Shown here in pieces: positions 2 to 17,700 of a stretch of DNA of 24,000 bases. Under the pieces are notes generated by a model. It saw only the letters and a program-made list of their open reading frames with translations. It did no database searches and was not told the DNA's origin. The stretch comes from Candidatus Ornithomonoglobus sp. (GTDB lineage Bacteria > Bacillota > Clostridia > UBA1381). The position numbers were made by a program, and so were the translations under genes. The stretch is taken from the NCBI GenBank assembly GCA_045537455.1, contig JAZSPM010000193.1, forward strand, positions 1-24,000. The letters are read 5' to 3'. The first letter of the stretch is position 1; the number at the start of each line of letters is the position of its first letter.

Positions 2-919
2 ATTAATCCCCTTGAACCCAAGGCTTGGTCAGATGGTGAAAAAGCAGACCTTGAAGCTCCCGAAGTGTTCAGAAAGGTTACAAGACTGAGTCAGCATATC
101 TCCTACCTCAAAGACTTTTTCAGAGCCTACAAGGACTTCACTGATGCTGAAATCGACACAATTGAAATCATGCTGATGAAGCTTTACGGCAGATTCGGTA
201 TGGACGACGGCACGGACTTTGACAGATTCACAGCCGAGGATTATCCCACCATGAGTGACCTTTACGAGCTTATCGAAAAAGAGTTCATGGCATTCGACAG
301 TGAGAAGAAACACCTGTACACCGAGGAAATGCTCCAGAATATCTGTCTCGGACTGAACTCCATGTGCAAGGGTGCGGAGGCGAAATACTTCGACGGTCAT
401 ACCAATATCCGTGACGCAGAGTTTATCTGTTTCGGTGTGAAAGGTCTTATGGATACTAATAAGCGGCTGAAAGACACCTTGCTGTTCAATATCCTGTCGT
501 ATATGAGCAATCAGCTTCTTGGCAAGGGAAACACGGTGGCGGCCGTCGATGAGCTTTATTTATTCCTCACAAACATGACCGCAATCGAATATATCCGCAA
601 CGGCATGAAGCGTGTGCGTAAAAAGGAGTCCTCGTTTATTCTGGCAAGCCAGAACATCGAGGACTTTTTGCTTCCCGAAATCAAGGAGTTTACAAAACCA
701 CTGTTCAGTATTCCGTCCCACCACTTCCTGTTCAATGCAGGACAGATCAATCCGCAGGAGTATATGGATGCACTGCAGCTTGAAGAATCTGAGTTCAGTC
801 TCATTCGCTATCCGGAGCGAGGAACCTGTCTGTACCGCTGTGGTAATGAGAGATATCTCCTGCAGGTAATCGCACCTGCGTATAAGGCGGCACTGTTTGG
901 TGCGGCGGGAGGAAGATGA
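2..919 (+). CDS. VirB4-family conjugative transfer (T4SS) ATPase, C-terminal part; 5' end lies outside the window
   Basis: The frame of the 65..919 ORF stays open back to position 2 (INPLEPKAWSDGEKADLEAPE...), so the gene is cut by the window edge. It has a Walker-B-like AAVDELYLFL and a FILASQNIEDF motif typical of VirB4/TraE-type ATPases. Neighbouring hydrolase and relaxase genes fit this call. Confidence 0.7.
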   Translation: MNPLEPKAWSDGEKADLEAPEVFRKVTRLSQHISYLKDFFRAYKDFTDAEIDTIEIMLMKLYGRFGMDDGTDFDRFTAEDYPTMSDLYELIEKEFMAFDSEKKHLYTEEMLQNICLGLNSMCKGAEAKYFDGHTNIRDAEFICFGVKGLMDTNKRLKDTLLFNILSYMSNQLLGKGNTVAAVDELYLFLTNMTAIEYIRNGMKRVRKKESSFILASQNIEDFLLPEIKEFTKPLFSIPSHHFLFNAGQINPQEYMDALQLEESEFSLIRYPERGTCLYRCGNERYLLQVIAPAYKAALFGAAGGR

Positions 920-1059
920 TGCTTGAATTATTGTGGCATATATGGTATAATAAGCATCACAAGGCAAACCGTGAAAACACCTACTTGCACTTTGTCAATA
1001 TCTGCAAGGAATCGGGCATTCCAGGTGTTGTTGAGGATTATGGTATTAAATCTGAATAG
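916..1059 (+). CDS. small hypothetical protein (47 aa), translationally coupled to the ATPase gene
   Basis: Not in the ORF track (under 60 aa). ATG at 916 overlaps the ATPase stop (ATGA, 916-919) and GGGAGGAAG lies at 908-915. My translation is MMLELLWHIWYNKHHKANRENTYLHFVNICKESGIPGVVEDYGIKSE, with stop TAG at 1057-1059. I recognise no family. Confidence 0.35.
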   Translation: MMLELLWHIWYNKHHKANRENTYLHFVNICKESGIPGVVEDYGIKSE

Positions 1060-1092
1060 CTCTATGTTTGAAGCGGTTATGAATCATAGATA

Positions 1093-2025
1093 ATGGGGTT
1101 GGTGATAACTGTGAAAAGATTATTAGTGGTAACTTTATCTTTACTTTTATGTACAGGATGTAATTTGAGCGATTCAAGTTCCGATAAACAAGACTCAGAA
1201 ATGGAAGCATTCACATCCGACGTTACGCAAAGCATGACAAATGATACAAGCATGACAGATGACATGATGAATGATATACAGATGATTGATTTGAATTTGC
1301 CTGAAAACAGTCACTATCTGGAATATTATAAGGAATTCACCTATGGAAAAGAGTGTTTTTTGTCTGATGGTCGGAAAATTATTGAAGATACAAATCTGTA
1401 TCTTGAGGATTTATCAGGGAATAAAACAGCCCTTATTGAGGTTCCGAAGGAAGAAACCGAAAAATATGTCGTGTTTGGGGAAATGCTTGACGATAACAGA
1501 TTCAGCTATTATATTGTTAATCATGAATCAACAGAGGACTCGGGAGTGTATAACCTTGTAACCTGTGAGGACTTCCGTATAGATGTTTGCGAAGATCATT
1601 CATCCTATGTTCCTAAGAAAGTAATCGATAATTACTTGTATTTTTCAAAGGGCTTTATTTCGGATTTCAGAGGAATCTGCAAGTTAAATCTTGATACCTA
1701 CGAATTCACAGAATTCAACTGCTCAGCATTGCTTGACAACGATATTTGCTATTTGGGAAGTCCGGATTTCTCATCTGATGGAACAACAGCTGCTGTTTAT
1801 GGAATCGTTTCCCAACCTTCGGAAATAAACGGATTAAATGAATATCAGGTAGCAATCTATTCACTGACAGATGAAAAAGTCATTACAACCTATAATTTTT
1901 TTAGTGAGCATTATTATGTTGATCATCAATTGATATATCACGATGACGGTGAGGTTTACCTGTATCTTTCTCAGTATGGCGATAATCCTCAACATCACCT
2001 TTATATCATCGATGTAACAACGTAA
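1093..2025 (+). CDS. putative secreted lipoprotein of the conjugative element
   Basis: 310-aa ORF with an N-terminal signal and a lipobox-like LLLCTGC. An in-frame GTG at 1111, preceded by GGTGA at 1101-1105, would give a classic (M)KRLLVVTLSLLLCTGC start. The rest is hydrophilic and D/E/S-rich, with no recognisable catalytic motif. Confidence 0.6.
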   Translation: MGLVITVKRLLVVTLSLLLCTGCNLSDSSSDKQDSEMEAFTSDVTQSMTNDTSMTDDMMNDIQMIDLNLPENSHYLEYYKEFTYGKECFLSDGRKIIEDTNLYLEDLSGNKTALIEVPKEETEKYVVFGEMLDDNRFSYYIVNHESTEDSGVYNLVTCEDFRIDVCEDHSSYVPKKVIDNYLYFSKGFISDFRGICKLNLDTYEFTEFNCSALLDNDICYLGSPDFSSDGTTAAVYGIVSQPSEINGLNEYQVAIYSLTDEKVITTYNFFSEHYYVDHQLIYHDDGEVYLYLSQYGDNPQHHLYIIDVTT

Positions 2026-2110
2026 GACACGGCAAGCTATATATCCTTAAGGCGTATGGCTGACAAAGGCTGTGCCAATTGAATATTTAGAAGAAGCATG
2101 AGTCGATTGC

Positions 2111-2135
2111 AAGAGCAGTCGGCTCTTTTCTTTTT
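2111..2135 (+). terminator. weak intrinsic terminator after the lipoprotein gene
   Basis: aagagc-agtcg-gctctt forms a 6-bp stem with a 5-nt loop, followed by ttcttttt. Confidence 0.45.
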
Positions 2136-2159
2136 GGGGGTGATTGTATAAAAGAAATT

Positions 2160-3194
2160 TTGATAAAGCTTGCACTCGACATTTTCACTGACAAAGAAGC
2201 CAGAAACAAAGTGCTGATTGTGATACTGAGCATCGTCGTGGGTGCTATTTTTCTTCTCTTTGCTCCTGTTGCTGTGCTGATGACGTTGGGAGAAATTGAA
2301 CCGCCCGATGTGTCAGGAAGCTTCGATCAGGCGGCGTGGATGCAGTCTCTTGACAGTGAACAGCAGGAACGTATCACACAAATGGAATCCACAGGTCAGC
2401 AGATTGCTTCTGCAATGGAATCAGCAGGTGTTCGTGAGCAGACCATCAAGGCACAACTCATATATATATCCTGCTTCAAAGATGTGGAGGTAGATGACTT
2501 CAATGCCTATGCGAATCTGTTTAAGGATGAAGATGATGAATCGCTTATTAACAGCATCAACCAGACCTACGGGTTGGAAATTGTGTATGAGGACTTCATG
2601 CGGAGCTATGCTCTCATCAGTCACGTGGTAATCAATCCGTATATGTTCACGGACGCACAGACGAAGCACTCAACTGACCTTGTGATATGGGCAAGGCAGG
2701 CATACGAAAACGGCTGGGGTTATGTGTACGGCACCTATGGAAATATTCTTACCGAGGAACTCCTGCAGGACAGAGCTGACCTGTTCGGAGAACATGTCAC
2801 AGGCTTTGAAGATTTCATTCGTGAGAACTGGATGCGAAGGAGAACGGCAGACTGCGTTGGTCTCATCAAGGGCTATGGCTGGTACAATCCCGACAGCGGA
2901 GAAATTGTTGTAGGCTCTAACGGAATGGCTGATGTAACTGCCAACGGAATGTTTGATGCGGCAACAGTCAAAGGAACGATAGATACCATTCCCGAAACAC
3001 CCGGACTTGCTGTGTGGCAGGACGGTCACATTGGAATATATATCGGGAACGGTGAGGTTATCGAAGCCATGGGGACAGAGCAAGGCGTTGTGAAAACTAA
3101 GCTTCCAAGCAGCTGGACGCACTGGCTTGAGATTCCGTATATCACATATTCACAAGAGGAAGAACCGACAACAGAAGAAAGTCAGGAGGGATGA
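2160..3194 (+). CDS. membrane-anchored NlpC/P60-family peptidoglycan hydrolase (conjugation-associated)
   Basis: There is an N-terminal TM helix (VLIVILSIVVGAIFLLFAPVAVLM). The C-terminal domain carries the NlpC/P60 catalytic Cys context RRTADCVGLIKGYGW and His context DGHIGIYIGNGEVIEAMG. The start is TTG and uncertain. Confidence 0.75.
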   Translation: MIKLALDIFTDKEARNKVLIVILSIVVGAIFLLFAPVAVLMTLGEIEPPDVSGSFDQAAWMQSLDSEQQERITQMESTGQQIASAMESAGVREQTIKAQLIYISCFKDVEVDDFNAYANLFKDEDDESLINSINQTYGLEIVYEDFMRSYALISHVVINPYMFTDAQTKHSTDLVIWARQAYENGWGYVYGTYGNILTEELLQDRADLFGEHVTGFEDFIRENWMRRRTADCVGLIKGYGWYNPDSGEIVVGSNGMADVTANGMFDAATVKGTIDTIPETPGLAVWQDGHIGIYIGNGEVIEAMGTEQGVVKTKLPSSWTHWLEIPYITYSQEEEPTTEESQEG

Positions 3195-3196
3195 AA

Positions 3197-3445
3197 ATGA
3201 AAAAGACAATCACAGTAAGCATCAATGAAGAAAAGCTCTCGGCGATTGAGATGTACCTCGGTCAGAAGGACACGACTCTTGCAGCAGAGCTTGACAAGTT
3301 CGTCGAGCAGACCTACACCAAGGTCGTGCCGCAGAACGTCAGAGATTTCATTGATATGATGGCTGACAAGAAGCCGGAAAGGAGGTCAGGTCGAAGGTCA
3401 AAAACATCGGAGCCTGCTCCGATAGCAGACAGCATCAAGGATTGA
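3197..3445 (+). CDS. small hydrophilic hypothetical protein of the transfer module
   Basis: AGGAGGG at 3183-3189 sits 7 nt before ATG 3197, which is a better start than the track start 3191. The ORF overlaps or abuts the hydrolase stop. The product is an 82-aa charged protein (MKKTITVSINEEKLSAIEMYLGQKD...). Confidence 0.55.
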   Translation: MKKTITVSINEEKLSAIEMYLGQKDTTLAAELDKFVEQTYTKVVPQNVRDFIDMMADKKPERRSGRRSKTSEPAPIADSIKD

Positions 3446-3733
3446 AGCCCCACAGTTCGCTCCAGAATCGCTTGTGTGGGCGGTTTGGGAGCCAGAGTCG
3501 GGAAAGGATACCCACAAGCCGTCAAGCGAAATTTGAGGGCTTTGTGAGCAAGTCCGCAGAGGTCAGGATTTACCGACTTCTGCCCCGATTCGGGGTTGGT
3601 CTTTGGTTTGCTGGTTAAAGTTTTGGCGTCACAGCCGCCAAAACAATCACATCGGACGAGCAAAGCTCGCCGAATCTTCGAGGTTTTATCACAAGAATGA
3701 TTATGGAGTCAAGAAAGGAGTTTTGCAAAAATC
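3446..3733. promoter_or_regulatory. candidate origin of transfer (oriT) / relaxosome assembly region
   Basis: This 288-bp GC-rich non-coding gap lies directly upstream of the putative accessory gene and the relaxase. It has a perfect 9-bp inverted repeat, gttttggcg(7 nt)cgccaaaac, at 3620-3644. It also has ccccga-t-tcgggg at 3583-3595 and cccaca...tgtggg at about 3449-3479. No nic site could be identified. Confidence 0.3.
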
Positions 3734-4624: not shown

Positions 4625-4706
4625 ATTTTTCTCCTGATTGTGATTTGGTTCCTATATTATACCACATCACCGAAGAAAAATCAACACCTTGAAAGGAAGT
4701 GATCCT

Positions 4707-7118
4707 ATGCCCCTATCTCAAATTATCGTCACAAGCCGTTATCTCAAAAGCGGCAGTGCAAAGAGTGTGACGAAACGAAAAAACTACACAAAGTATATCG
4801 CAACCCGTGAAACCGTTGAAAAACGTGAGCAGAATCAATATGATCCCAATGTTGCTACCACGAAAACACAAAAGGAAATGCTATCCGAATTGCTCAGTGA
4901 CTTTCCCGAAGCAAAACGCTATCTTGAATATGAGGACTACACTGCAAATCCTACAGTGCAGAATGCAAGCGAACTGATCACAACAATCATTGAACGTCAC
5001 GCAGATGTCATTGGAAACCGTCAGAATTTTGTCGGTTACATGGCAAAGCGTCCCGGTGCAGAGCAGCGTGGTGCTCACGGATTATTCAATGATAGTGATG
5101 AACCCATCGTGCTGAATCAGGTTGCAGATGAGGTTGCACATCACAAGGGAAATGTATGGAGTCATGTAGTATCACTTCGCCGTGAGGATGCAATACGTCT
5201 TGGATATGATAACTCAGACCGCTGGCGTGAACTTGTCAAGCGGCAGATTCCTGTCATTGCAGAGCAGTCAAGAATCCCCATGAGCAATTTGAAATGGTAT
5301 GCTGCGTTTCATGATACGACGCATCATCCGCATATGCATCTGATTGTCTATTCCACCAATCCAAAGCAAGGCTATCTGAGCAGAGAGGGTATTGACAAAA
5401 TCCGTTCTGCGTTTGCAAATGATATCTTTCATGATGATCTGCAGAGCATCTATCAGGAGCAGACGCTGAGTCGTGACGAGCTGAAATCTATATCACAGGA
5501 ACAGGTGCATCAGATGGTAATGCAGATTCAGAACAGCACTTTCAATAATCCACAGTTGGAAAAGTTGGTGAAAAAGCTGCATGAACAATTGCAGACCGTC
5601 AGCGGTAAGAAAGTCTATGGCTATCTGCCGCAGGATGTGAAACGAACTGTTGATGACATCCTTGCAGAGCTTGCAAAGGACAAGCAAATATCACAGCTTT
5701 ATGAAAAGTGGTGTGAGTTGGAACGGCTGAAGCATAAGATCTATATCCAGAAAGAACCGGAACTCCCACCGCTTGCCGACAACAAGGTATTCAAGCCTGT
5801 GAAGAATATGGTTATCCGTGCAGTACTTGATATGAATATGCCAGAACCAAGCCCATACTCTGTTCCGCAGAATGATGACAGCGACGATACTGCTTTCAGC
5901 AATATTGATAACGACATCTTTACTTGGAGTGATGAAGATGCTGTTGAGGTTGAAGTTGAAAGTTCCAATCTGCACATTCAATGGTCGAAGGATTATAAAA
6001 GAGCCTGCAAACTGTATTACAAAAAGGATGCAACAGGTGACGAAAAGAAGGAAGCTGTGGAATTGCTTCACTCCGAAGCTGAGAAAGGAAACGTACTTGC
6101 CATTCATGACCTTGGAAAAGTGTATGCTGATGACAAAGAAAAGTCCGATGCATATTACAAGCAGGCACTTGATGGTTTTCTTGAGCTTGAACCAATGTCG
6201 CAAAAACTGCAGCCGTATCTGCAATACCGCATTGGTAAGATGTACTGCTATGGCTCAGGAACTGAACAGAACTACGCAGAATCATTCGGATGGTTTCTGA
6301 AATCCGCAATTGCAGGAAATAAGTTTGCACAGTTCAGTCTTGCAAATCAGTATTACTACGGAAACGGATTTTATAAAGACAAAGAACAGGCTCTGCAATG
6401 GTATATGAAAGCGGCAGAACAGGGATTGCCCTATGCAGCGTATGCCGTTGCACAGATGTATGCAAACGGTGAAGCGGTGGTGCAGAATAAAGAAAAGGCT
6501 CAGCAGTACTATGCACAGGCGCTTGACGGCTTTCTGAAATTTGAAAAAAGCGACCGTGCAGATGATAACCTGCTGTATAAGCTCGGCAGAATGTATCGAT
6601 ATGGACTTGGAACAGATGAGGATATTCCCCAAGCCTTGGAATACTTCTCACGTTCAGCAAAACATGGCAATAAAAATGCCAGACGCATGATTGCCATTGA
6701 GCAACTATCAGGTGAATACATTCCTCAGGATGTGAATAAAGCTGTGGAAACGCTCACAGAGCTTGCAGAAAATGGAGATGCGGCATCTGCATATCGGCTC
6801 GGCAAACTGTATCTCTTTGGTGCAGATGGTATTGAACGTGATGTGCCACAAGCAATACAATGGCTTACCCAGTCCGCAGAAGGTGGTAACGAGTATGCAC
6901 AACAGCTTCTTGATAACATGGAGGAGAGGGAAAACGCTGCATTCGCATCAACTATCTTCGGGTTGTTTGTAAGCTTAAGCCGTATGATTGAAGATGACTA
7001 TAACAGGAGTCATAAGAAACTGCAATTTAAAGTTGATAGTAAACTGCGTAGAGTTATCCTAAAAAGAAAACAGGAATTAGGTATTAATCCAGAAAATGGT
7101 CAAACGCAGACATTTTAA
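4707..7118 (+). CDS. MobL/MOB-P-type conjugative relaxase fused to C-terminal Sel1-like (SLR/TPR) repeats
   Basis: AAGGAAG at 4692-4698 precedes ATG 4707 (the track start 4689 is TTG). The N-terminus reads IVTSRYLKSG...KYIATRETVE. A histidine-triad motif HDTTHHPHMHLIVYS lies at nt 5310-5339 and onward. The C-terminal third contains repeated GN..A...LG..Y..G.G...D...A..W units. Confidence 0.8.
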   Translation: MPLSQIIVTSRYLKSGSAKSVTKRKNYTKYIATRETVEKREQNQYDPNVATTKTQKEMLSELLSDFPEAKRYLEYEDYTANPTVQNASELITTIIERHADVIGNRQNFVGYMAKRPGAEQRGAHGLFNDSDEPIVLNQVADEVAHHKGNVWSHVVSLRREDAIRLGYDNSDRWRELVKRQIPVIAEQSRIPMSNLKWYAAFHDTTHHPHMHLIVYSTNPKQGYLSREGIDKIRSAFANDIFHDDLQSIYQEQTLSRDELKSISQEQVHQMVMQIQNSTFNNPQLEKLVKKLHEQLQTVSGKKVYGYLPQDVKRTVDDILAELAKDKQISQLYEKWCELERLKHKIYIQKEPELPPLADNKVFKPVKNMVIRAVLDMNMPEPSPYSVPQNDDSDDTAFSNIDNDIFTWSDEDAVEVEVESSNLHIQWSKDYKRACKLYYKKDATGDEKKEAVELLHSEAEKGNVLAIHDLGKVYADDKEKSDAYYKQALDGFLELEPMSQKLQPYLQYRIGKMYCYGSGTEQNYAESFGWFLKSAIAGNKFAQFSLANQYYYGNGFYKDKEQALQWYMKAAEQGLPYAAYAVAQMYANGEAVVQNKEKAQQYYAQALDGFLKFEKSDRADDNLLYKLGRMYRYGLGTDEDIPQALEYFSRSAKHGNKNARRMIAIEQLSGEYIPQDVNKAVETLTELAENGDAASAYRLGKLYLFGADGIERDVPQAIQWLTQSAEGGNEYAQQLLDNMEERENAAFASTIFGLFVSLSRMIEDDYNRSHKKLQFKVDSKLRRVILKRKQELGINPENGQTQTF
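6050..6920 (+). other. Sel1-like repeat region inside the relaxase
   Basis: There are about 6-7 units of roughly 36 aa. Examples are AEKGNVLAIHDLGKVYADD, AIAGNKFAQFSLANQYYYGNGFYKDKEQALQWYMKAAEQGLPYAAYAVAQMYANGEAV, AKHGNKNARRMIA, AENGDAASAYRLGKLYLFGADGIERDVPQAIQWLTQSAEGGNEYAQQLL. Confidence 0.65.
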
Positions 7119-7125
7119 AATAAAA

Positions 7126-7161
7126 AGCGTATCGGATTGTGGTCAATTCGGTACGCTTTTT
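7126..7161 (+). terminator. intrinsic terminator after the relaxase
   Basis: agcgtatcgg...ttcggtacgct forms an imperfect stem followed by ttttt. It abuts the left copy of the 19-bp inverted repeat. Confidence 0.5.
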
Positions 7162-7177
7162 CGTCAATTCCGCTCAT
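7159..7177. repeat. left copy of the perfect 19-bp inverted repeat bracketing the recombinase gene
   Basis: tttcgtcaattccgctcat at 7159-7177 is the exact reverse complement of atgagcggaattgacgaaa at 8521-8539. Confidence 0.9.
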
Positions 7178-7256
7178 TTACGAAGTGATTATTGAGGTGA
7201 ATTTACGGTAACTTTAATTATATTATATCATAAATTTTGCAAATGTAAAGACTTTT

Positions 7257-7286
7257 TTGAAAATTTTATACTGAAATATTTATAAT
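7257..7286 (+). promoter_or_regulatory. sigma-A-like promoter for the recombinase gene
   Basis: TTGAAA (7257-7262), an 18-nt spacer, then TATAAT (7281-7286), about 55 nt upstream of ATG 7342. Confidence 0.45.
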
Positions 7287-7341
7287 AAGGCGAGTTTTAA
7301 AGTTTTTAAACCGTCATATTTCAGTCGGAATGGAGGATTTT

Positions 7342-8442
7342 ATGGCTAAACGAGGAAGTAATATTTATAAGCGCAAAGATGGACGTTTTGAAGGACGTGT
7401 ACCTGTAGGATATCAAGAAAATGGAAAAATAAAATATAAATCTGTTTATGCAAGGACACTTTCAGAAGTGAAAGAAAAAATGTCTGAAATTCGTTCTGTT
7501 AAGCAGAATTCATCAGTTTCAAAAATTAAATTAACTGTTAGGGAAGCAGCAGAGCAATGGTTATCCTCTGCGAAATTACGTGTTAAAGAGTCGAGCTATT
7601 TCAATTATTTGAACATCATAAAAAAGCATATTCTGCCTATTCTTGGTGGAGAGTTAATGATGAATTTGACAACGAATAAATTGAATAATTTTATTGACTT
7701 TAAATTGACAAATGGTAGATTAAACAGCAATGGTGGACTTTCAGCAAAATCAGTACGTGATATTATGACTGTATATCGTAGTATTGAAACATATGCATCA
7801 AGAGAATATGGAATCTGCGAGACACATTTTACAATGCCAAAAACACAAAGTAAAGGAACAGATATTCTTACTGTAGATGAAAGAAAAAAACTTGAAACTT
7901 TTCTTGTTGACAATCCCAATATAACAAATGTGGGTGTTTTGCTTTGCCTTTTTACAGGATTACGTGCAGGTGAATTATGTGGTTTGAAATGGGAAGATAT
8001 TGACTTCGATAATGGAGTTTTAAATGTAAAACGAACCGTACAGCGCATAACTAAAAACGGGAAATCACAGGTGATTGTAGGAACACCTAAAAGTAAAACA
8101 TCAGTGCGAACTGTTCCGATTCCAACATTTGTTTTGAATATAATGAAGAATTACAAAAGATATAATGATTTTTATATTATTACTGGTACAAGAAAACCCA
8201 CAGAACCTAGAACTATGCAGAACCGTTTTAAATCAATTTTAAGATTGTGTGACATAAGAAATGTCAACTTTCATCTGCTACGTCACACCTATGCTACAGT
8301 TTGCATTGAAAAAGGATTTGATCCTAAAACACTTAGTGAATTGCTTGGTCATGCTGATGCAGCTATCACATTGAACAGGTACTGTCATCCATCAATGCAA
8401 ATAAAAAAAGATTATGTAAGCCGTCTTACTTTCACTGCTTAA
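7342..8442 (+). CDS. tyrosine site-specific recombinase / integrase
   Basis: GGAGG at 7332-7336 lies 5 nt before ATG 7342 (the track start is 7330). The N-terminus has an arm-binding-type MAKRGSNIYKRKDGRFEGRV. The catalytic region has LFTGLRAGELCGLKWEDID, HLLRHTYAT and LGHADAAITLNRYCH (R..H-x-x-R..Y). Confidence 0.85.
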   Translation: MAKRGSNIYKRKDGRFEGRVPVGYQENGKIKYKSVYARTLSEVKEKMSEIRSVKQNSSVSKIKLTVREAAEQWLSSAKLRVKESSYFNYLNIIKKHILPILGGELMMNLTTNKLNNFIDFKLTNGRLNSNGGLSAKSVRDIMTVYRSIETYASREYGICETHFTMPKTQSKGTDILTVDERKKLETFLVDNPNITNVGVLLCLFTGLRAGELCGLKWEDIDFDNGVLNVKRTVQRITKNGKSQVIVGTPKSKTSVRTVPIPTFVLNIMKNYKRYNDFYIITGTRKPTEPRTMQNRFKSILRLCDIRNVNFHLLRHTYATVCIEKGFDPKTLSELLGHADAAITLNRYCHPSMQIKKDYVSRLTFTA

Positions 8443-8520
8443 TTTTTTAGCCGTCAGATTTTTGTATTTGCTATTTGAAAATAATGCTATTTTCGGCTAT
8501 TTATCTTGCTAATTTGATAT

Positions 8521-8539
8521 ATGAGCGGAATTGACGAAA
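8521..8539. repeat. right copy of the perfect 19-bp inverted repeat bracketing the recombinase gene
   Basis: atgagcggaattgacgaaa lies 79 bp after the recombinase stop and 75 bp before the -35 of the response-regulator promoter. Confidence 0.9.
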
Positions 8540-8613
8540 TTATATTTTAAGTTCATCTTATTATATTATGTCGTAAATCAATTCTTTTATCATAATATTT
8601 TTGTAAAAAAGAG

Positions 8614-8642
8614 TTGCATTTTAATGTTTCTTGTGATACAAT
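8614..8642 (+). promoter_or_regulatory. sigma-A promoter with extended -10 for the regulator-kinase operon
   Basis: TTGCAT (8614-8619), a 17-nt spacer, then TGaTACAAT (8634-8642). The predicted transcription start near 8650 excludes the upstream in-frame starts at 8614 and 8644. Confidence 0.55.
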
Positions 8643-8676
8643 TATGAAAAAGAGTATTATTGAGAGGATTGGTTTT

Positions 8677-9408
8677 ATGTTGAGGATCGCAATTGTGGAT
8701 GACGAGGAGCATATTTGTGAGCAAGTGGAACGTTTATTACAGGAATGTTCTAAACAGATAAATGTTGACTTCCAAATAGAAATTTTTTATTCAGGTGAAG
8801 CGTTAATTTCAAAGTTAAAAGATGATGAAAAATTTGATTTAATCTTCCTTGATATTGAATTGTATCAATATAATGGTATAGACGTTGGACATTTTATTCG
8901 AGATGAATTGCTTGATGATTCTACTCAAATAGCATTTATATCGGGCAAGAATGGTTACGATAGACTTCTGTTTGAATTTAGACCAATACATTTTATTGAG
9001 AAACCTGCGACGTTGAGTAAAATACAAAACGTAATTACAAAGTATATTCGTATCTATGGACAACAAGGTGATGTGTTTAATTATAAAGTTAACAGAGACA
9101 CTTATTATGCTGATGTAAATAAAATCCTGTATTTCAAAAGTGATGACCGTAAGGTGATAATAGTAAGCAAAGATGATATCGATGAATTTTATTATTCAAT
9201 AGAAAAAATAGCACAGCAGTTAAAGAATAAAGGATTCTTTGTTCCTCACAGGAGTTATTTGGTGAACTATAGATATGTAAAATCTTTTCAGCTTAAGAAG
9301 ATTATTATGACTAATGGTGATGAGATACCGATCTCTGAAAACAGGAGGGCAGACGTCTTAAAAATACAGGTAATTATGGAAAATGGAGGTAAATTCTATG
9401 GACTTTGA
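8677..9408 (+). CDS. agrA: LytTR-family response regulator (AgrA-like)
   Basis: GAGAGGA at 8662-8668 precedes ATG 8677 (MLRIAIVDDEEH...). There is a receiver domain (IFLDIEL phospho-acceptor context). The C-terminal LytTR domain reads ILYFKSDDRKVIIV...FFVPHRSYLVNYRYVKSF...MTNGDEIPISENRR. Confidence 0.85.
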   Translation: MLRIAIVDDEEHICEQVERLLQECSKQINVDFQIEIFYSGEALISKLKDDEKFDLIFLDIELYQYNGIDVGHFIRDELLDDSTQIAFISGKNGYDRLLFEFRPIHFIEKPATLSKIQNVITKYIRIYGQQGDVFNYKVNRDTYYADVNKILYFKSDDRKVIIVSKDDIDEFYYSIEKIAQQLKNKGFFVPHRSYLVNYRYVKSFQLKKIIMTNGDEIPISENRRADVLKIQVIMENGGKFYGL

Positions 9409-10669
9409 TTTGTACACATGGGTTTACCTTATAACAAATCTATTTACGCTTGCAATTGTTCATAGGTTTATGGGAGCTTTTTTTGACGAAATAATTAAGC
9501 CTAAATGGCATATAATTATTTCGTATGCGTTGTACTTTGTTTTTACCAGTGCGATGTATCTAATATGGGATATACCCGTACTTGCGATGATAGTCAACTT
9601 AATACTACTCTTTGTTATAACGTTGAATTATAGATCTAGCTTAAGAAAAAAACTTTTTGTTGTAATATTCTTTTATATTTTTATGTTTGTTACTGAAGTT
9701 ATAGTATGTGCGGTGACGGGATATTTCAATTTTCCTATGTTTAATAGTGGTAATTACAATAATTCAACAGGACTGGTAGTAATGAGATTGGTTGCTTATT
9801 TAGAATCTATAGTTTTTTGTAATATAAAGTCTTTAAGGAAAAATGATATTGTTACTATACCACAATGGATAGCAACATTATTTATTCCAATTTCAACTCT
9901 TGTTATGAAAGTACTTGTTGTTGATTCTGAAAATGCTAGTCAGTTTCAAGTAATCTCATCGACAATAATCATATTTTTGATTAATCTTCTTACGTTTTTC
10001 TTATATAATTCTTTATCTAAAAGTTATGCTAAAGAAAAAGTGACTGCACTAATAAGTAAAGAAAAGGAAATGTACTATAATCAATGTCTTCTTATGCAAG
10101 AAACTAATGAGCATTTACAGGGTTTTCGTCATGAAATAAACAATCAATTTATATCGATGAAGGAGTTAATAAATAAACATATGTATAATGAATTAGATGC
10201 TTTTGTTGAGAAACTTACTGAAAAACTTGAAATAGAGAAAATATACAGCAATACAGGGAATGTTGTAGTTGACAGTATAATCAACTACAAGTTAAATCTA
10301 TTAAATAATGCTGATGTTGTAACAGAAATAGCAGTACCATCTTCGTTAGAAGTTGATATAAATGACATGGTTATCATATTAGGTAATATTCTTGATAATG
10401 CGGTTAAGGCACTTAATGAAAATGAAAAGGATTCAAAGTTGTATTTTAAGTTAGTATATAGTCAAGGAAGATTACTCATAAAAGAAACGAATACCTACAA
10501 AACAAGAATATGTTATGAAAACGGTAAAATTCAATCAAGCAAAGCAGATAAAGCCAATCATGGTTTGGGCTTGAAAAATGTAGAGGATGCTGTTAAAAGA
10601 CATGATGGATATATGGAGATAAATCATAATGACAATATTTTTTCAATAGATATCATATTGTTTGTTTAA
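9398..10669 (+). CDS. agrC: AgrC-like membrane sensor histidine kinase (GHKL, HPK10-type)
   Basis: GGAGG at 9385-9389 precedes ATG 9398, and the start overlaps the regulator stop by 11 nt. The N-terminal half has about 6 hydrophobic helices. The H-box is FRHEINNQF, the N-box is LGNILDNAVKA and the G-box is NHGLGLKNVEDAV. Confidence 0.85.
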   Translation: MDFDLYTWVYLITNLFTLAIVHRFMGAFFDEIIKPKWHIIISYALYFVFTSAMYLIWDIPVLAMIVNLILLFVITLNYRSSLRKKLFVVIFFYIFMFVTEVIVCAVTGYFNFPMFNSGNYNNSTGLVVMRLVAYLESIVFCNIKSLRKNDIVTIPQWIATLFIPISTLVMKVLVVDSENASQFQVISSTIIIFLINLLTFFLYNSLSKSYAKEKVTALISKEKEMYYNQCLLMQETNEHLQGFRHEINNQFISMKELINKHMYNELDAFVEKLTEKLEIEKIYSNTGNVVVDSIINYKLNLLNNADVVTEIAVPSSLEVDINDMVIILGNILDNAVKALNENEKDSKLYFKLVYSQGRLLIKETNTYKTRICYENGKIQSSKADKANHGLGLKNVEDAVKRHDGYMEINHNDNIFSIDIILFV

Positions 10670-10683
10670 CAAATAATAGTATA

Positions 10684-10718
10684 ATGCCTTGTAAGTAAAT
10701 TGCTTACAAGGCATTTTT
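10684..10718 (+). terminator. strong intrinsic terminator after the kinase gene
   Basis: atgccttgtaag-taaattg-cttacaaggcat is a perfect 12-bp stem followed by tttt. Confidence 0.8.
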
Positions 10719-10771
10719 ACTGCAAATAACACAGGATTTCACAGCAATCAAAATAAAATACAATTTTTTAA

Positions 10772-10780
10772 TGCTATAAT
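10772..10780 (+). promoter_or_regulatory. extended -10 promoter element upstream of the AgrD-like ORF (activator-dependent type, no good -35)
   Basis: TGcTATAAT lies at 10772-10780. The -35 position (about 10752-10757) reads aataaa, a poor match as in activator-dependent agr promoters. ACAG-type imperfect direct repeats lie upstream at 10731, 10741 and 10760. Confidence 0.5.
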
Positions 10781-10817
10781 AAACCTGCCAAAAAATATAA
10801 AATAAAGGGGTGTTATT

Positions 10818-10961
10818 ATGAGAAAATTTTTAATTAAATTTAGCGGATTATTTGCAGCATTCGCATTATGTGTTACAACTTTAACTGAGAATTCAACTTG
10901 TTTTTTTTGTGCTCATCAGGAAGAAATGCCTGCTAATTCAAAGAAACTCCGTAAATTTTAA
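10818..10961 (+). CDS. agrD: AgrD-like autoinducing-peptide precursor (47 aa; below the ORF-track size cut-off)
   Basis: My translation is MRKFLIKFSGLFAAFALCVTTLTENSTCFFCAHQEEMPANSKKLRKF. It has an amphipathic leader, a Cys-containing core and a charged tail. The tail Pro lies 6 residues after the predicted cleavage point (CFFCA|HQEEMP), the same spacing as S. aureus CDFIM|DEVEVP. The RBS is AAAGGGG at 10804-10810. The stop overlaps the agrB-like start (TAATG at 10959-10963). Confidence 0.75.
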   Translation: MRKFLIKFSGLFAAFALCVTTLTENSTCFFCAHQEEMPANSKKLRKF

Positions 10962-11542
10962 TGTTTAGGGATATTTCATCAAAATTAACAGACAAGCTTA
11001 TAAGCTTAAAAACAATTGATCCAGAAGATAGAGAAATATATGAATTTGGAATACAGCATATTTTTATTACTATTTTTAATATATCTACAGTTCTACTACT
11101 TGGACTTCTGCTAGGTGATCTTAAGGAGGCTATGATTTTTATTTTTGCTTTTATACCATTAAGGATATTTGCAGGAGGTTTCCACTTTAATTCACCAATA
11201 ATGTGCTACATATTTTCTTCATGCTTTGTAGCGGTAGTTCTTTTGGCAATGAGATATTTAAGCATTCCGCTTCTCATTTACTGCTTGCTATATTGCCTGT
11301 CTGGTATTATAATACTGACTTTTGCACCGGTAGAGGATAAGAATAAGCCTTTGGATCAGCTTGAAAAAAAGGTGTACAGGAAAAGAACGATAATTGTATT
11401 TGTTGCAGAAAATATGATTATGTTGTTATTCTGCTCCTTAAAATTCTACATTGCAGCAAAATGTATTATGGTGTCAATAATTGCTTTAGGATTATTAATT
11501 GTTTTAGGCGTAATAAAAAATTATTTGCTAAGCGTCAAATGA
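10961..11542 (+). CDS. agrB: AgrB-like membrane endopeptidase (AIP maturation)
   Basis: 193-aa polytopic membrane protein. The motif PLRIFAGGFHFNSPIMCY has His and Cys 7 residues apart, as for the catalytic H77/C84 pair of S. aureus AgrB. It is translationally coupled to the AgrD-like ORF. Confidence 0.8.
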   Translation: MFRDISSKLTDKLISLKTIDPEDREIYEFGIQHIFITIFNISTVLLLGLLLGDLKEAMIFIFAFIPLRIFAGGFHFNSPIMCYIFSSCFVAVVLLAMRYLSIPLLIYCLLYCLSGIIILTFAPVEDKNKPLDQLEKKVYRKRTIIVFVAENMIMLLFCSLKFYIAAKCIMVSIIALGLLIVLGVIKNYLLSVK

Positions 11543-11547
11543 TTTTT

Positions 11548-11608
11548 ATCAGTATACATTCGTAATTGGTTGTTATGCATACTGGAAAAGGATGTATACT
11601 GATTTTTT
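11548..11608 (+). terminator. long-loop terminator / possible attenuator between agrB-like gene and toxin gene
   Basis: atcagtatacat (11548-11559) pairs perfectly with atgtatactgat (11592-11603), followed by a T-run to 11608. A third near-copy, atgcatactg (11575-11584), in the loop can also pair with the 5' arm with one mismatch. Confidence 0.5.
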
Positions 11609-11647
11609 ACAAGCAAAAATTAAAATTATTTCTAATGGGGAGGGTAT

Positions 11648-11746
11648 ATGAGAAATTTAAATAATCTCAAAAGAGTAGTAAGCGGTGTTCTTAGTGTTAC
11701 TTTGCTGGCTAACTTTGGAACAATATTTCCGATGAATGCATTTGCC
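11648..11746 (+). other. Sec-type signal peptide of the toxin
   Basis: MRNLNNLKRVVSGVLSVTLLANFGTIFPMNAFA|NEE has a basic n-region, a hydrophobic core and an AFA cleavage-type site. Confidence 0.7.
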
Positions 11747-14700
11747 AATGAAGAAATTGAAGAACAAGCAGACTCTATTAATGAAACAACTGGTCACAGG
11801 TACCAATTAATTGATACATCGATGAGTTGGACCGAAGCTGAGGAGTATTGCGAAAGCCTTGGTGGACACCTTGTTACAGTAAATTCAAGCGATGAGCAGC
11901 AGTTCATTGTTGATAATCTGTTAACAATAGGAACAAAAAATGCATACTTTATCGGTATGTACAGAGATGACATTGATAGTGACTGGAAATGGGTAACAAA
12001 CGAATCTACCGAATTTTTTAACTGGGATGAAGGAGAACCAAGCTATACAGATGATAATTATGTGTATATGTATGGTTCAAATTTCAATTCAGGCAGTTGG
12101 AAAAACACGCAGAACTATGTAGAGGATTCAACTGAATTCTCAACAGCTAATATAGGTTATATATGTGAATGGGAAGCTGAAGAATCTGAAGTTGAAGTAG
12201 AGAGAAGAATGAAGAACTACGCTCTTTTTTCAGCAAGCAGTTCAACAGATTTCAGTTATTCTGGCTGGAAAAGTAATATCATAGGCAATATTTATAGTGG
12301 TTCATCTTTTAAATATGGTGGATCAGAGTTCAGCGTTACAGGAAGGGTTGATACCGTAAATTCTATTTCTGCTGATGGCTGGAAGATAGAAATCAATGAA
12401 AGAAATGAAAACATTGCTCCAGTGGAAATGGAAGATTTTGATAAGGTTATTCATGATAACGCACAGCCCTATGATTATTACGAAGAAAATACTGTGTATA
12501 TACAGGATTTGAATGTAATAGATAAGTCGATAAAGATTTCTGGCGACGTTGAAATCGGCGGAACAACTTTTGAAGGTGATTGCTATATTATTGCCGACGG
12601 AAATATTACATATAATGTTAATGATTTCAATTCTACAGGCAGGGTATTCTTATACTCCCAAAACGGAAATATTACTATAAATGGAACAAACGTTAACATA
12701 AACGGAGGCATTTATGCACCTAATGGTAACGTTTCTTTTAATATATACGAAACAAATCTTAATGGTTTTGTATGGGCTGACAGTATAACATATAGTGGCA
12801 GTATTTTTAATGTAACTGCTAATAATTTTGATATGCTTGAACCGAGAAGTGTAGTTAAGACTTATACTATCGATGCCGATTTTAACGAGGGACAGTTCAA
12901 CGGACTTGGCTTGGATGTTTCTGATGAATTGACTTTAACATCTGGCAATAAAGCAGTTGAAACACCTTCTGAAAGAATATATGGCGATTCGGAAACCGGC
13001 AAAGGAGTAAAGGTTACTTATTCAACAGATAAATCTGCTGTCACAGGTGATGGAGATAATGTTACTGTAAAGTACGGACTTGGCGGATTCGGTGAAGCAG
13101 ATGTAACTGAAAATGCAGTTGATCTTATTATTGTAGTTGATGAATCCGGTAGCATGGCCGGAAATCGTATGACAAATACTAAGTCAGCAGCAAAACAGAT
13201 TATTTCACAAATGAAGGAAGTTGATCGTTGTGCGGTTGTTGGATTTACCGGCAGTTCAAATGTAAAACAGAATCTGACATCTGACAAAGATTTGCTTAAT
13301 AAAGCTGTTGATAAACTTTATGCTAGTGGCGGAACTGCGATTTACTCAGGAATTGATAAAGCACTTGCAATGTTTGATGAACAGAGTGAGGATAGTAGAC
13401 AGAAATATATTATTCTTTTATCAGATGGCGAAGACGGATATGAAGCACGTTCTCTTCAATCAGCAACAACTGCTGGCAATAGCGGAATACGAATTTTCTC
13501 AATGAAAATCGGAAGCGGAACTCTTCAGATGCAGAATATTGCTATCAATAGCAATGGAATATATAAGAATGCACCTACAGCAGATGATATTGTTAAAATA
13601 ATGTCATACTTTGCTTCTGAAGTGTTTAACGTAGCAGGAAGAAACACCACATTTAAGACTACTATCAAGGATATAAATTCTGTTGATATTTCTTCTCTTA
13701 GTCCAGAACCCTCAAAAATAATGGAAAACGACGACGGAAGCGTTTCTGTTGAATGGAATTTTGATAGAATAACTATCGATGAAGAAATGGAAATTAATAT
13801 TCCTTTGACTGTAACTGGCGATAATAACGGATTTGTTGACCTTCTTGAAAATACATCATGCGTCTATTACGATAGAAATGGTAAACCAAATGTAATATAT
13901 GCCGAAGATGCATTTTTACCGATAAGCGATTATGTTGATAATGGTAACTGGACAGTTATTTTTGATAGTGAAAGAGAAACTGTTGAGTGGGATAAAATTT
14001 ACTGGAATGGTAACAGATATGGTGATGGTGAAATTTCAGTATATGTTTCTTCCAGTAATGATGGAGAGAATTTCTCAGAGCCTGTCAAGATTGAAAACTT
14101 TGAACAATTCTCTGGCGTGGTAGGCAGATATGCTAAAATTAGTGTAGATATGAAAGTATCTGCTGATGGAAGAACCCCTGAGTTGTATGACATTACAATT
14201 GTATCAAAGGATGCAGTTGTTACAGATTTAGAAAACAATTCCCCTGTCGCAGAGATTGTTTCAAAGAATAATACTAAAGTTAATGTTCCGATGACAGTTA
14301 GAGCTGATCTTGCAGATGATTGCCTGAAATCAAATATAACTGTTTCATGGGACTGCGAAAGTGACAATTTGAAGTTTTCTAGTTCTTCAGAACTAATTAC
14401 ATCTGTAATTTGTTCCGAAACAGGAAGCTATGAAATAATCTGTACTGTAAATGACGGTGAAAAAACTGTTCAAAGTTCAAAAACTATTGTTTGTGAACCG
14501 GCAGATAGCTATGCAAATATTGATCCTGATAATCAGGACGAGGCTGCAGCACCTGAAATCAATGTTGTACTTCCTAAATATGCTGACAGAAAAGAAACCA
14601 TTAACGCACAGATTGAAAAGCTTAATGATACAGAAATTTCCTGGTATTCTGTAATTTTCAATGGTAATACAGCAGTTGATGTAACTGATGATGGAGCATT

Positions 14701-17700
14701 TTCTCTTGTTATGCCTAATAAAGATGGAACCTATAAGGTTGTTGTCAGAGCATTTGATTGGGCTGGTAAGTCTGATGTTAAGGAATATTCTATAATAGTT
14801 GACAGTACTGTAGCTGCTATTGAAATAAAGCCATCTTCTGAGGAAACAACAATCAATTCAGATGCATATTTCAAAGTATCAGTCGCTGCTGCTCATAAAA
14901 TTAAAGAAATTGTTTATACTTTGAACGGAAAGCAGATTGCCATTCCCGAAGATGGCATTTTACCTGTAGATACCAATGTTGAAGCAGAATATGTTCTTGA
15001 AGCTAATGGTATTACTACATCCGGTAAAACGCTTAAAGCTTCTGCAAAGATTACTGTAATTGAAGAAGATTCAGAAAAGCCTGTTGTTAATATCACTTTT
15101 GATAAAAATAGCTATAACGAGAAACAGAATGCTGTTATAACAGTAAAAGCAACTGATAATGTAGGTGTAACTTCACTTGTTGTATTACTTGATGGTAAGG
15201 AAATCGTTCTTGACGGCAATGGACAGTTTTCGATTACAAATATGAAATACGGTGAATACGTTATTACAGCAAATGCTTATGATGAAGCAGACAATAATGG
15301 TAGTGCTACAAAAACATTAACCGTAAAGGATGTAACAAAGCCTACCCTTTCATTAACTGTTGATAAAACGGAAATAGACGTTGGAGAAACAGTTAATATT
15401 TCTGTTGACGCTGCTGATAACAATGGTGTTGTAAATACAGTATTAACTGTAAATGATAAAGAACTGGAACTTTCAGAAGATAACTCTGTATCTTTCAAAC
15501 CTGATACAGCAGGGACATATACTATAAAGGCTGTAGCATCTGATCCTTCTGGAAATAGTCTTACAAAGAAGGTAACTGTCACAGTTAAAGAAGTTGATAC
15601 AATTGCTCCAATTGTTACTATTTCCTTTGATAAGGATACTTATTTTGAAACTGATGATATTGTAATTAATGTTTCCGCAACAGACAATGTTGGAGTAACC
15701 GATATAGCCTTATTAATTGACGGAACTGAAGTTGAACTTAATGCAGAAAATTCATACACTATAAAAAAAGCTGAATTAAAGAATTATACAATCACAGCTA
15801 AAGCTTATGATGAAGAAACCAATGAAGGAACTGCTACTGAAACTGTTGTAGTAAATGAAGCAAAAGCACCAGAGATTAATGTAACATTTGACAAGGACAT
15901 TTACAATGAAGGCGATTCTTTACAGGGTCTTGTAACAGTTCAGGGTCAGAGCGAAATTATCTCTCTTACAGCAAAAGTGAATAATCAGCCTTTAGCACTT
16001 GAAAACGGTATATTTACACTTAGTAATCTTGAAGCAGGTGAATATACATTTACCTTTACTGCTGAAGATGTAAGAGAAAAGACATCAACAATTAATAAAA
16101 CCATTACTGTTATTGATGAAGAACATAAAGCTGATGAGAGATTGTATGCTGTTGTTGATGGTCTTGTTGAGTATGGTAAATCAGCAATGTACAAGGTTAC
16201 AGCCTCAGATGATATTGATAAGTCTACTATTTTAGTAACCTTAAACGGTGAAAAAATTGAACTGACGGATGAATATACATACGAATTTAAGGGCGAAAAA
16301 CTTTTTACAAATGAATTCATTTTAACAGCAGAAACTGTTGATGGTGAAATTCTTACTGTTAAAAATTCAGTGCTGGTTTACGAAACTGAAAAACCAACTG
16401 TTACAGTAGTTCTTAATAAAGACAAGGATATTCAGGAACATGATGATATTGTAATAACAATAACTGCAGAAGATATTTCCGGAATAAGAAAAATCCAGTG
16501 CTTATATGATGGCGTAGAAATTCCTCTTGATGAAAACGGACAGATGTTCATCAATGATTTTGAAGTAAGACCTCATTCGGTTGTTATAAGAGCATGGGAT
16601 AATTTCGGTAACCTCAGATCATATCTCCTTTCATTCTATGTAGTAGAAACAGAAGTATCAGGCGGTGGTTCTGTTTCTGTTGGTGGCAATACAGAAGATA
16701 CAGAGTCCAAAACATTGATTGCGGATATTTATACACCAATTAATGAAGATGTCATTTCTTGTCCTTCGTATATTTTCGGTCGTGCAGACGGTACAGAATT
16801 TGAAAAATACAGATTGGAATACCAGTCAGCAGCAGGTGGAGATTATGTTCTTATCAGCGAAGGAACAGAAAAAGTAAATAATGGTTCTTTAGGTGAATTT
16901 GATACAACTATGCTCCGAAACGGACTTTATAACATCAAGCTTACTGTATGGGGTAAGAACGGTGAAGTAACCTCTGATGAAATTATTGTTTCTGTTGAAG
17001 GTGAGATGAAAATCGGTAACTTCTCACTTGATTTTCAAGATATGGATCTCAATGTAGCTGGAGCTCCGGTTACAGTAATAAGGGGCTATGACAGCCGTGA
17101 CAGAAACATAAGCGGAGATTTTGGCTATGGTTGGAATCTCTCTACCTGCGGTGTAACTGTTACAAAGAGCTGTGACCTTAGTCGTAATTGGGATATGCAG
17201 CAAAAAGGATATAATATTTCTTACACCCCCACAAAACCTCATATTATATCAGTTAACTGGGGTAATGGCAAAGTTGAGAAATTTGTAATGGAAGCTAAAA
17301 GTGATGGTGCATCAACATTGAAAACAGCTTCATTCACTTTCAAGTCAATGGATGGAAGTAACTCTAAACTTTTCCCAAATATTACAACTGGAGCATGGAT
17401 TTATGAAAACGGGTATTTCTTTAAGTTAGATGAAGAGTGGGATGATATACCTTTTAATCCGGATGTATGGCAATTAAATAAAGCTGATGGTACAAAGTAC
17501 CTTATTAGCTGTACAAATGGAATTTTAGCTTTTGCTGATGCAAATGGAAATCAGATTAAATTTAATAAGGATGGAATTGAAAACTCTGATGGTGAAGAAA
17601 TTTCAATTATTCGTGACAGTAATGACAGAATTACAAGCATTTCATCTCCAACAGGTAAAACAGTTTCATATGAATATGATGAAAATGGAGATCTTGTAAA

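Follow-up and report, generated by a model that had tools for sequence, protein, structure and literature searches.

What is a tyrosine integrase gene doing between two inverted copies of one short sequence? The question is raised by a 24,000-nucleotide stretch of DNA (the window below) from the Clostridia member Candidatus Ornithomonoglobus sp. (GenBank assembly GCA_045537455.1, contig JAZSPM010000193.1, positions 1 to 24,000), in which TTTCGTCAATTCCGCTCAT at positions 7159–7177 and its exact reverse complement at 8521–8539 bracket a 1381-bp segment (the module below) whose only long open reading frame, 7330–8442, encodes such an integrase (gene int). We think it likely that this segment is an autonomous site-specific inversion switch that moves a promoter onto and off the operon of a neighboring regulator. 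The features on which the question turns are the following:

7159–7177, plus strand: left arm of the perfect 19-bp inverted repeat (repeat search)
8521–8539, minus strand: right arm of the perfect 19-bp inverted repeat (repeat search)
7342–8442, plus strand: tyrosine integrase gene, 366 amino acids from the ATG at 7342, in a frame open from 7330 (Pfam)

An earlier note on the window had reported a perfect 19-bp inverted repeat around one tyrosine recombinase gene, and both its coordinates and its exact reverse complementarity are confirmed; the arms can be extended to 22 nt, at which length their complementarity is 95%. The 19-mer is present only twice in the 24 kb, even when up to three mismatches are allowed, and none of 100 dinucleotide-preserving shuffles reached two matches; the note, too, had called a chance origin very unlikely. 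Its description of the surroundings is accurate as well: the GC content falls from about 0.45 to about 0.30 at ~7100, that is, at the left arm; the left arm overlaps a terminator-like hairpin (7122–7161) that follows the relaxase stop codon at 7118; and the end of the right arm lies 76 nt (the note gave 75) before TTGCAT, the −35 element at 8615 of a response-regulator promoter. Directly repeated att sites were not found, since the only two site copies in the 24 kb are the inverted ones around int. There is no target-site duplication at the module edges (CGCTT on the left, TTATA on the right), and an Rfam scan of the whole window gave no match.

A protein search with the window integrase returned thousands of relatives, and about 180 loci (given L numbers below) were collected from exact-protein look-ups, a one-genome-per-species scan, a metagenome scan and a plasmid collection. 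The one-genome-per-species scan yielded Ruminococcus and Oscillospiraceae metagenome-assembled genomes (MAGs) and the isolates R. flavefaciens SAb67 and FD-1. The exact-protein look-up of the window integrase itself found no record; a 99% homologue, L001, has the same locus organization. More than 100 related loci from Ruminococcus/Oscillospiraceae genomes and gut or rumen metagenomes share this layout, with constant synteny: conjugation genes and relaxase, then int, then a regulator. The earlier note had proposed checking whether the repeat accompanies the recombinase elsewhere, and it does: wherever the integrase identity is at least 60% and the locus includes both gene ends, the repeat flanks int at matching positions (left arm ~150–190 nt ahead of the int start, right arm ~80 nt past the stop).

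The orientation of the module in each locus was determined by mapping the window's relaxase, regulator, kinase and AgrB proteins onto all loci. In 102 loci int runs in the same direction as both flanks (forward, as in the window), and in 11 the module is inverted while the order of the flanks is unchanged; L012 (recognized by its flank signature), L170 and L179 are further inverted cases. The inverted state makes up about 11% of loci and the window's orientation about 89% of assembled loci. Inversion between the same flanks is seen in at least 13 independent contigs from different studies and assemblers, and pairwise alignments place the breakpoints inside the repeats. For example, when L014 is aligned with L019 both flanks match in reverse and the module matches forward, with switch-over points at 5839 and 7180, where the L014 arms occupy 5817–5839 and 7182–7204; L035 and L037 give the same pattern. 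Three pairs of nearly identical elements were found in opposite orientations:

L129 (inverted) and L131 (forward): module 100% over 1360 nt; conjugation-side flank 100% over 1500 nt; regulator-side flank 99.8% over 1002 nt
L122 (inverted) and L123 (forward): module 100% over 1373 nt; conjugation-side flank 99.9% over 736 nt; regulator-side flank 100% over 386 nt
L098 (inverted) and L097 (forward): module 100% over 1348 nt; conjugation-side flank without a match; regulator-side flank 99.8% over 1007 nt

In addition, two integrases, P0098 and P0104, are each one exact protein sequence that occurs in both orientations in different samples. The existence of near-identical elements in both orientations means that inversion is recurrent and recent rather than an old, fixed rearrangement. 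Across loci the module therefore occurs in both orientations with its junctions in the repeats, as an inverton (an invertible DNA element) does. The earlier note had offered a self-inverting switch as one of two explanations, to be doubted if related genomes held a single orientation; both orientations are present, and this explanation is strongly supported. Contig ends offer signatures that are suggestive only: both termini of contigs L042 and L090 (1391 and 1388 nt) coincide, to within a few nucleotides, with the outer limits of the arms (although several near-identical copies in one genome could give similar breaks), and at the end of L026 35 nt of reverse-complemented right flank are fused to the left end of the module.

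Comparison of the loci resolves each arm into two 9-nt half-sites around a 7-nt spacer, a 9-7-9 arrangement as is usual for the core sites of tyrosine recombinases:

7160–7184, plus strand: left core site, TTCGTCAAT / TCCGCTC / ATTTACGAA
8514–8538, minus strand: right core site, TTCGTCAAT / TCCGCTC / ATATATCAA

The two sites have the same outer half-site, TTCGTCAAT, and the same spacer, and the outer half-site does not vary among more than 100 loci. The right inner half-site is degenerate; the left one comes close to ATTGACGAA, the palindromic partner, reading ATTTACGAA in the window and matching perfectly in L059. Junction sequences of inverted loci show that the outer half-site and spacer remain with the flanks and that the interior is flipped. 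The spacer is variable, with 17 variants among 87 distinct modules, and yet in 80 of the 87 the left and right spacers agree. When arms were shuffled among modules 10,000 times, the mean number of matches was 10.9 and the maximum 23. Such concerted change in both arms is required if the two crossover regions must recombine with each other. Clades at 41–54% integrase identity have half-sites of their own, TTTCGCAAAT, TTTCGCATAT and TTTCGTAGAG, within the same architecture, and in several distant clades the repeat spans a full palindromic core, for example TTCGTAGAG-TATTCCC-CTTGACGAA; the clade-specific half-sites are consistent with co-evolution of protein and DNA. By its repeat, its 9-7-9 anatomy and its co-varying spacer, each arm is, as far as comparison of loci can tell, a recombinase core site.

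We also considered a long-range RNA stem formed by the arms in a read-through transcript (an RNase III site, for example). It was rejected, as the DNA repeats are perfect, they have half-site and spacer anatomy, there is no variation of the G-U type, and the segment physically inverts.

The integrase itself matches Pfam Phage_integrase (PF00589, 9e-29) and Phage_int_SAM_3 (PF14659). Its start is probably the ATG at 7342, since homologues are 366 amino acids long and begin MAKRGS, and a ribosome-binding site, GGAGG, lies at 7332–7336. Residues R212, K254, H315, R318, H341 and Y351 (numbered from 7330) do not vary among 16 homologues at 70–85% identity, so that the protein belongs by sequence to the tyrosine recombinase superfamily and looks catalytically competent. 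Among proteins of solved structure, those nearest in sequence are a staphylococcal integrase, XerA and the Tn1549 integrase (E ~1e-14). The AlphaFold (AF2) model, with a mean predicted local distance difference test (pLDDT) score of 74, has an N-terminal three-stranded sheet and helix in residues 12–53 (strands 12–14, 20–28 and 34–41, helix 44–53; pLDDT ~70–79 in this block), followed by a core-binding helical domain and a catalytic domain. The best Foldseek match to it is Tn1549 Int (E = 6e-14), and full-length lambda Int aligns over ~368 columns; the predicted structure thus appears to have the heterobivalent domain layout of the lambda, Tn916 and Tn1549 integrases (N-terminal arm-binding, core-binding, catalytic). 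The NCBIfam invertase models NF007370 and NF007371 score 24.7 and 24.0 bits against cut-offs of 221 and 222. The predicted fold, and scores so far under the FimB/FimE cut-offs, place the protein with the lambda/Tn916/Tn1549-type integrases and not with the small dedicated invertases. The 10 kb on each side showed no further recombinase. Given that int is the sole gene of the module, that its clades track the half-sites and that no other recombinase lies within that distance, we infer that the module's own integrase catalyzes the inversion.

If the segment inverts, what does it carry? The earlier note had described its content as only a promoter and one gene. The single long open reading frame stands, but a conserved promoter on the opposite strand, directed outward, had been overlooked. 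The promoters, terminator and motifs in and around the module are:

7222–7249, minus strand: outward promoter (P_out), −35 TTTACA at 7249–7244, 16-nt spacer, extended −10 TGATATAAT at 7230–7222
7257–7286, plus strand: candidate int promoter, TTGAAA-18-TATAAT (promoter scan)
7308–7316, plus strand: motif AAACCGTCA, ~25 nt before the int start, with CCGTC columns invariant in 87 modules
8450–8456, plus strand: motif GCCGTCA just past the int stop, invariant in the alignment
7122–7161, both strands: hairpin with an A-run and a T-run after the relaxase stop, a predicted bidirectional terminator (inverted repeat, folding)
8565–8593, minus strand: flank promoter directed leftward into the module, degenerate here (ATGATA-17-CATAAT, with CATAAT at 8570–8565)
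8615–8643, plus strand: fixed promoter of the response-regulator operon, TTGCAT-17-TGATACAAT, outside the invertible segment

P_out (−10 hexamer at 7227–7222) has 11 of 12 consensus positions plus the TG motif and is directed leftward, out through the left core site. It lies at the same distance from the site in all 56 scanned loci with at least 60% integrase identity, and its columns are invariant in the alignment of 87 modules. The 50–54% clades have TTTACA-17-TGnTATAAT at this place, and the 41–44% clades and R. albus 7 have a perfect TTGACA-17-TATAAT; P_out is the most conserved non-coding element of the module and is present in every clade down to 41% integrase identity. The candidate int promoter is probably weak or variable, since neither its position nor its quality is conserved in other loci. 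The terminators are asymmetric: of 78 distinct loci, 94% have a hairpin with a folding energy of −10 kcal/mol or lower directly next to the conjugation-side site, and 1% have one next to the regulator-side site. In the window the predicted minus-strand RNA from P_out, ~95 nt long, ends in the 7122–7161 hairpin followed by the U-run UUUUUAUUUU (z = −3.6), and the earlier note had rightly placed the left repeat against this terminator.

These arrangements also bear on the claim in the earlier note that inversion would reverse whether int transcription runs into or away from the agr/toxin locus. This is true, but it is probably secondary: the int promoter is weak and not conserved, and the conserved element is P_out, divergent from int, which the note had not seen. 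In the 41–44% clade, moreover, a terminator lies between the int stop and the right site, so int read-through cannot be the output there.

Two further elements are conserved. The motif at 7308–7316 forms a direct repeat (D1) with 8441–8466, and the post-stop GCCGTCA is found in the 41–54% clades and in R. albus 7 as well; the CCGTCA motifs (7311–7316 and 8451–8456) might be accessory or arm-type sites. The flank promoter, degenerate in the window, is present in most relatives (clades at 50–100% identity) as TGnTATAAT ~25 nt outside the right site, and is absent from the 41–44% clade. In the forward state it would read int antisense, and only in the inverted state would it read int in the sense direction; the switch may therefore also set the integrase level and bias its own direction. 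The flank promoter and the regulator promoter form a divergent pair reminiscent of agr P2/P3.

The genes on either side of the module, which any switch here would have to act upon, are:

4689–7118: MobL/MobP3 relaxase fused to at least four C-terminal Sel1 repeats (Pfam, NCBIfam)
8677–9408, plus strand: LytTR response regulator, from the ATG at 8677 (Pfam)
9383–10669, plus strand: GHKL histidine kinase (Pfam)
~10833–10961, plus strand: small open reading frame between kinase and AgrB, AgrD-like precursor peptide (...TENSTCFFCAHQEEMPANSKKLRKF)
10961–11542, plus strand: AgrB
11648–21841: RHS/YD-repeat polymorphic toxin of 3397 amino acids, following the agr-like locus
21930–22853: SUKH (SMI1/KNR4) immunity-type protein, following the RHS toxin

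The operon from 8677 to 11542 on the plus strand was assigned with Pfam, NCBIfam and the gene table of the 99% homologous L001. The gene downstream of the module is a co-oriented regulator in every clade; in most loci it is a LytTR protein heading an agr-like operon, and the alternatives are a sigma-70 family protein (L160) and an XRE-HTH protein with an ImmA-like peptidase (L081). In L160 a 1196-aa RTX-repeat protein is encoded upstream (77–3667), and the sigma-70 family protein is accompanied downstream by an NYN-domain protein (5276–7542); downstream in L081 (7260–10257) are the XRE-HTH protein, the M78 ImmA-like peptidase, zinc-ribbon proteins and a YukD-like (type VII secretion) protein. 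In place of the RHS toxin of the window, other family members (L168) have ABC-transporter or bacteriocin-like cargo. The 99% homologue of the RHS toxin in L001 has lectin, VWA, RHS and TEN_YD-shell domains, and in relatives the Sel1 part of the relaxase is sometimes a separate protein (323 aa in L002).

The switch that we think likely would then work as follows. The internally encoded integrase would recombine the two inverted core sites and so flip the segment together with its own gene. The payload would be the strong promoter at the left inner end, divergent from int and pointing outward. In the forward state P_out would fire into the bidirectional terminator and give only the ~95-nt transcript, leaving the operon to its own promoter; in the inverted state P_out would come to lie ~190 nt upstream of the LytTR regulator gene with nothing terminator-like between them, and would drive the agr-like quorum-sensing operon, and thereby the toxin or bacteriocin cargo, in a subpopulation of cells. 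The common state would be the promoter parked against the terminator, and the minority state the promoter on the regulator operon. A broader proposal is that a widespread family of integrase-plus-promoter invertons, on conjugative elements and plasmids of gut and rumen Clostridia, gates the master regulator of the cargo (agr-type, sigma factor or XRE) and that quorum sensing sets the rate of flipping, which would make toxin or bacteriocin production a density-dependent form of bet-hedging. It takes its cue from the agr P2/P3-like divergent pair, whose leftward member is sense to int only in the inverted state, and we regard it as unlikely in this full form.

Several points weigh against a promoter switch of this kind. 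Both the activity of P_out and the genes that it would control are deduced from sequence. The regulator operon has a conserved promoter of its own, so the flipped promoter may only modulate expression. A conserved flank promoter that points into the module does not seem to fit a simple ON/OFF model, and orientation-dependent integrase expression may be part of the output or even the main output. Integrases of this type usually integrate and excise elements, and the enzyme may have a second role of that sort, with a further att pair at the ends of the element, which lie beyond the flanks of at most 10 kb. As to inversion itself, the same element in both orientations within one sample was sought among the exact-protein loci and not found, contigs bounded by the repeats could also come from near-identical copies with different flanks, and the spacers of the two arms differ by 1–2 nt in 7 of the 87 modules.

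Some of these points are drawn together by the explanation that the inversion is real and its main output is the level of integrase, controlled through the flank promoter, which may gate excision or integration of the element or the bias of the switch. This we consider unlikely. TGnTATAAT at ~25 nt outside the right site in clades from 50 to 100% identity, a weak and variable internal int promoter, and the lack of another recombinase within the 10 kb on each side speak for it, as does the modeled structure, nearest to the Tn1549 and lambda integrases and with an N-terminal arm-type domain. However, the flank promoter is missing from the 41–44% clade, where the terminator insulates int, and is degenerate in the window; there is no third or fourth core-site copy in the 24 kb; the R. 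albus 7 module is on a plasmid, where integration is not needed; and a near-consensus P_out as the most conserved non-coding element is left unexplained.

It is very unlikely that the sites serve intermolecular recombination (cargo swapping between elements with a shared spacer, or multimer resolution) with inversion as a by-product. Several genomes do have three copies, with the same spacer in some of them; identity is much higher for the integrase (66–85%) than for the adjacent regulator, kinase and AgrB (22–65%); and some pairs of loci have an identical module with unrelated sequence on one side. Cargo exchange at the sites is nevertheless not supported, as the mosaic breakpoints that we inspected lie 78–96 nt outside them (right side of L044/L047, left side of L107/L108) and a single case, L030/L095, breaks at a site edge. 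Multimer resolution needs direct repeats or one site per monomer, not an inverted pair, and neither P_out conservation nor terminator asymmetry is explained. L044/L047 and L107/L108 are otherwise identical elements, and their abrupt divergence suggests some different rearrangement, or joins made in assembly, in the neighborhood of the regulator promoter or of the upstream terminator.

The other option of the earlier note, a minimal mobile cassette of integrase and terminal inverted repeats that moves between positions, finds an echo in the single recombinase gene between such repeats and in the several copies per genome, but we give it hardly any credence, because more than 100 loci keep one gene order around it, homology of the flanks between loci reaches as far as the repeats, no target-site duplication is present, and copy number tracks the whole element and not the module. 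Equally improbable is that the repeats are operators or an artefact of assembly, with the inverted loci being misassemblies or rare inversions of old date: assemblers can be confused by short repeats and the loci are known from assembled contigs, but different studies and assemblers contributed the at least 13 inverted contigs, both orientations are represented among identical sequences, concerted spacer change would be unexpected for simple operators, and misjoins are not expected when the repeats (19–25 bp) are shorter than the k-mers given in several contig names (k = 77–141), although Logan contigs may use shorter k.

The module also occurs outside the close relatives and in more than one copy. 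R. albus 7, a cultured type strain, has it on the conjugative megaplasmid pRUMAL02 (NC_014825.1; L172, 4858–6154), where the integrase identity is 42%, the repeat is a perfect 20 bp, TTTCGCAAAGTCTGTGATTT, and the outward promoter is TTGACA-17-TATAAT. This record has five places that match the integrase; at a neighboring paralogue (L172, 6861–7940) a flanking repeat was looked for and none was found, so not every paralogue belongs to such a switch. Four MAGs have three module copies each on separate contigs (L010/L013/L020, L012/L016/L018, L021/L024/L026 and L015/L034/L045), with identical spacers in some copies of multi-copy MAGs, and L017 has two tandem modules (6001–7101 and 11421–12395), each followed by a response regulator. 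Decayed copies were also found: in L073 (2786–3885) the integrase is split over two frames, and in L148 (4001–4837), L149 (1486–2322) and L124 (4001–5041) it is N-terminally truncated and the left site is missing. These four are presumably locked in one orientation.

How does the inversion switch that we favor compare with those already known? In architecture it most resembles the Salmonella Hin/H segment and its relatives Gin, Cin and Pin: a ~1-kb segment with short inverted repeats holds a recombinase gene and an outward promoter, and in one orientation the promoter drives an adjacent operon that includes a regulator (an output that in our case is predicted). Hin is a serine invertase that needs a Fis-bound enhancer. 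The enzyme here is a 366-aa lambda/Tn1549-type tyrosine integrase and not a serine recombinase, so that the architecture alone is shared; in addition, the promoter does not lie downstream of the recombinase gene but diverges from it, and the hosts are conjugative elements and plasmids in Clostridia. Promoter inversion by tyrosine recombinases, with ON/OFF heterogeneity, would be shared with fimS and FimB/FimE, with ipuS and hyxS of E. coli, with the Bacteroides switches and with the RecV switches of C. difficile (cmrRST, flgB), among which the cmr switch likewise lies upstream of a signal-transduction operon. The segments of all these switches, however, are 150–350 bp long with the recombinase outside and often distant, whereas here the segment is 1.4 kb and the enzyme is inside it; and FimB/FimE-type invertases have ~200 amino acids and no arm-type domain, as against 366 amino acids with extra N-terminal domains.

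Tn1549, Tn916 and lambda supply the best sequence and fold matches and the three-domain layout, and their core sites too are two inverted half-sites around a ~7-bp spacer. Their att sites, though, are direct, lie at the element ends and serve excision and integration; here the sites are inverted around int, and inversion is what is observed. Enzymes of the Tn916 type tolerate spacer heterology, whereas in this family the two arms maintain identical spacers.

Invertible promoters on conjugative elements of Bacteroidales regulate resistance genes (PMC8748976). They share with the switch proposed here a phase-variable promoter on an integrative conjugative element that gates accessory cargo, and they differ in phylum and recombinase family, in being small invertons with an adjacent recombinase, and in cargo, which there is resistance genes and here a quorum-sensing regulator with toxin or bacteriocin genes. 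The "group 139" invertons of Clostridia are ~230–260 bp long, and their invertase is nearby rather than inside (PMC11892184). A full-text literature search found no published description of an inverton that encodes its own integrase in this architecture, only general inverton work. Inversion switches themselves are known; we rate as newly recognized here the invertons that encode their own lambda-type integrase, reside on Clostridia conjugative elements and plasmids and would gate cargo regulators.

With 1.4 kb between arms of 19–25 bp, such modules may exceed size limits that are common in inverton surveys. Their mechanistic interest is that a lambda/Tn1549-type integrase is paired with inversion and not integration, and that the enzyme is encoded inside its own substrate. 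The natural series of more than 17 spacer variants and at least four half-site specificities could give orthogonal recombinase/site pairs for engineering. The module is carried by cultured strains (R. flavefaciens FD-1 and SAb67, R. albus 7), which makes the model directly testable. If it is confirmed, R. flavefaciens, R. albus and their relatives, abundant fiber-degrading bacteria of gut and rumen, would hold the cargo of their conjugative elements for quorum sensing and antagonism under a heritable, reversible ON/OFF switch, with RHS toxins, bacteriocin-like loci and regulators expressed in part of a clonal population, which would bear on how costly weapons and the cargo of mobile elements are maintained.

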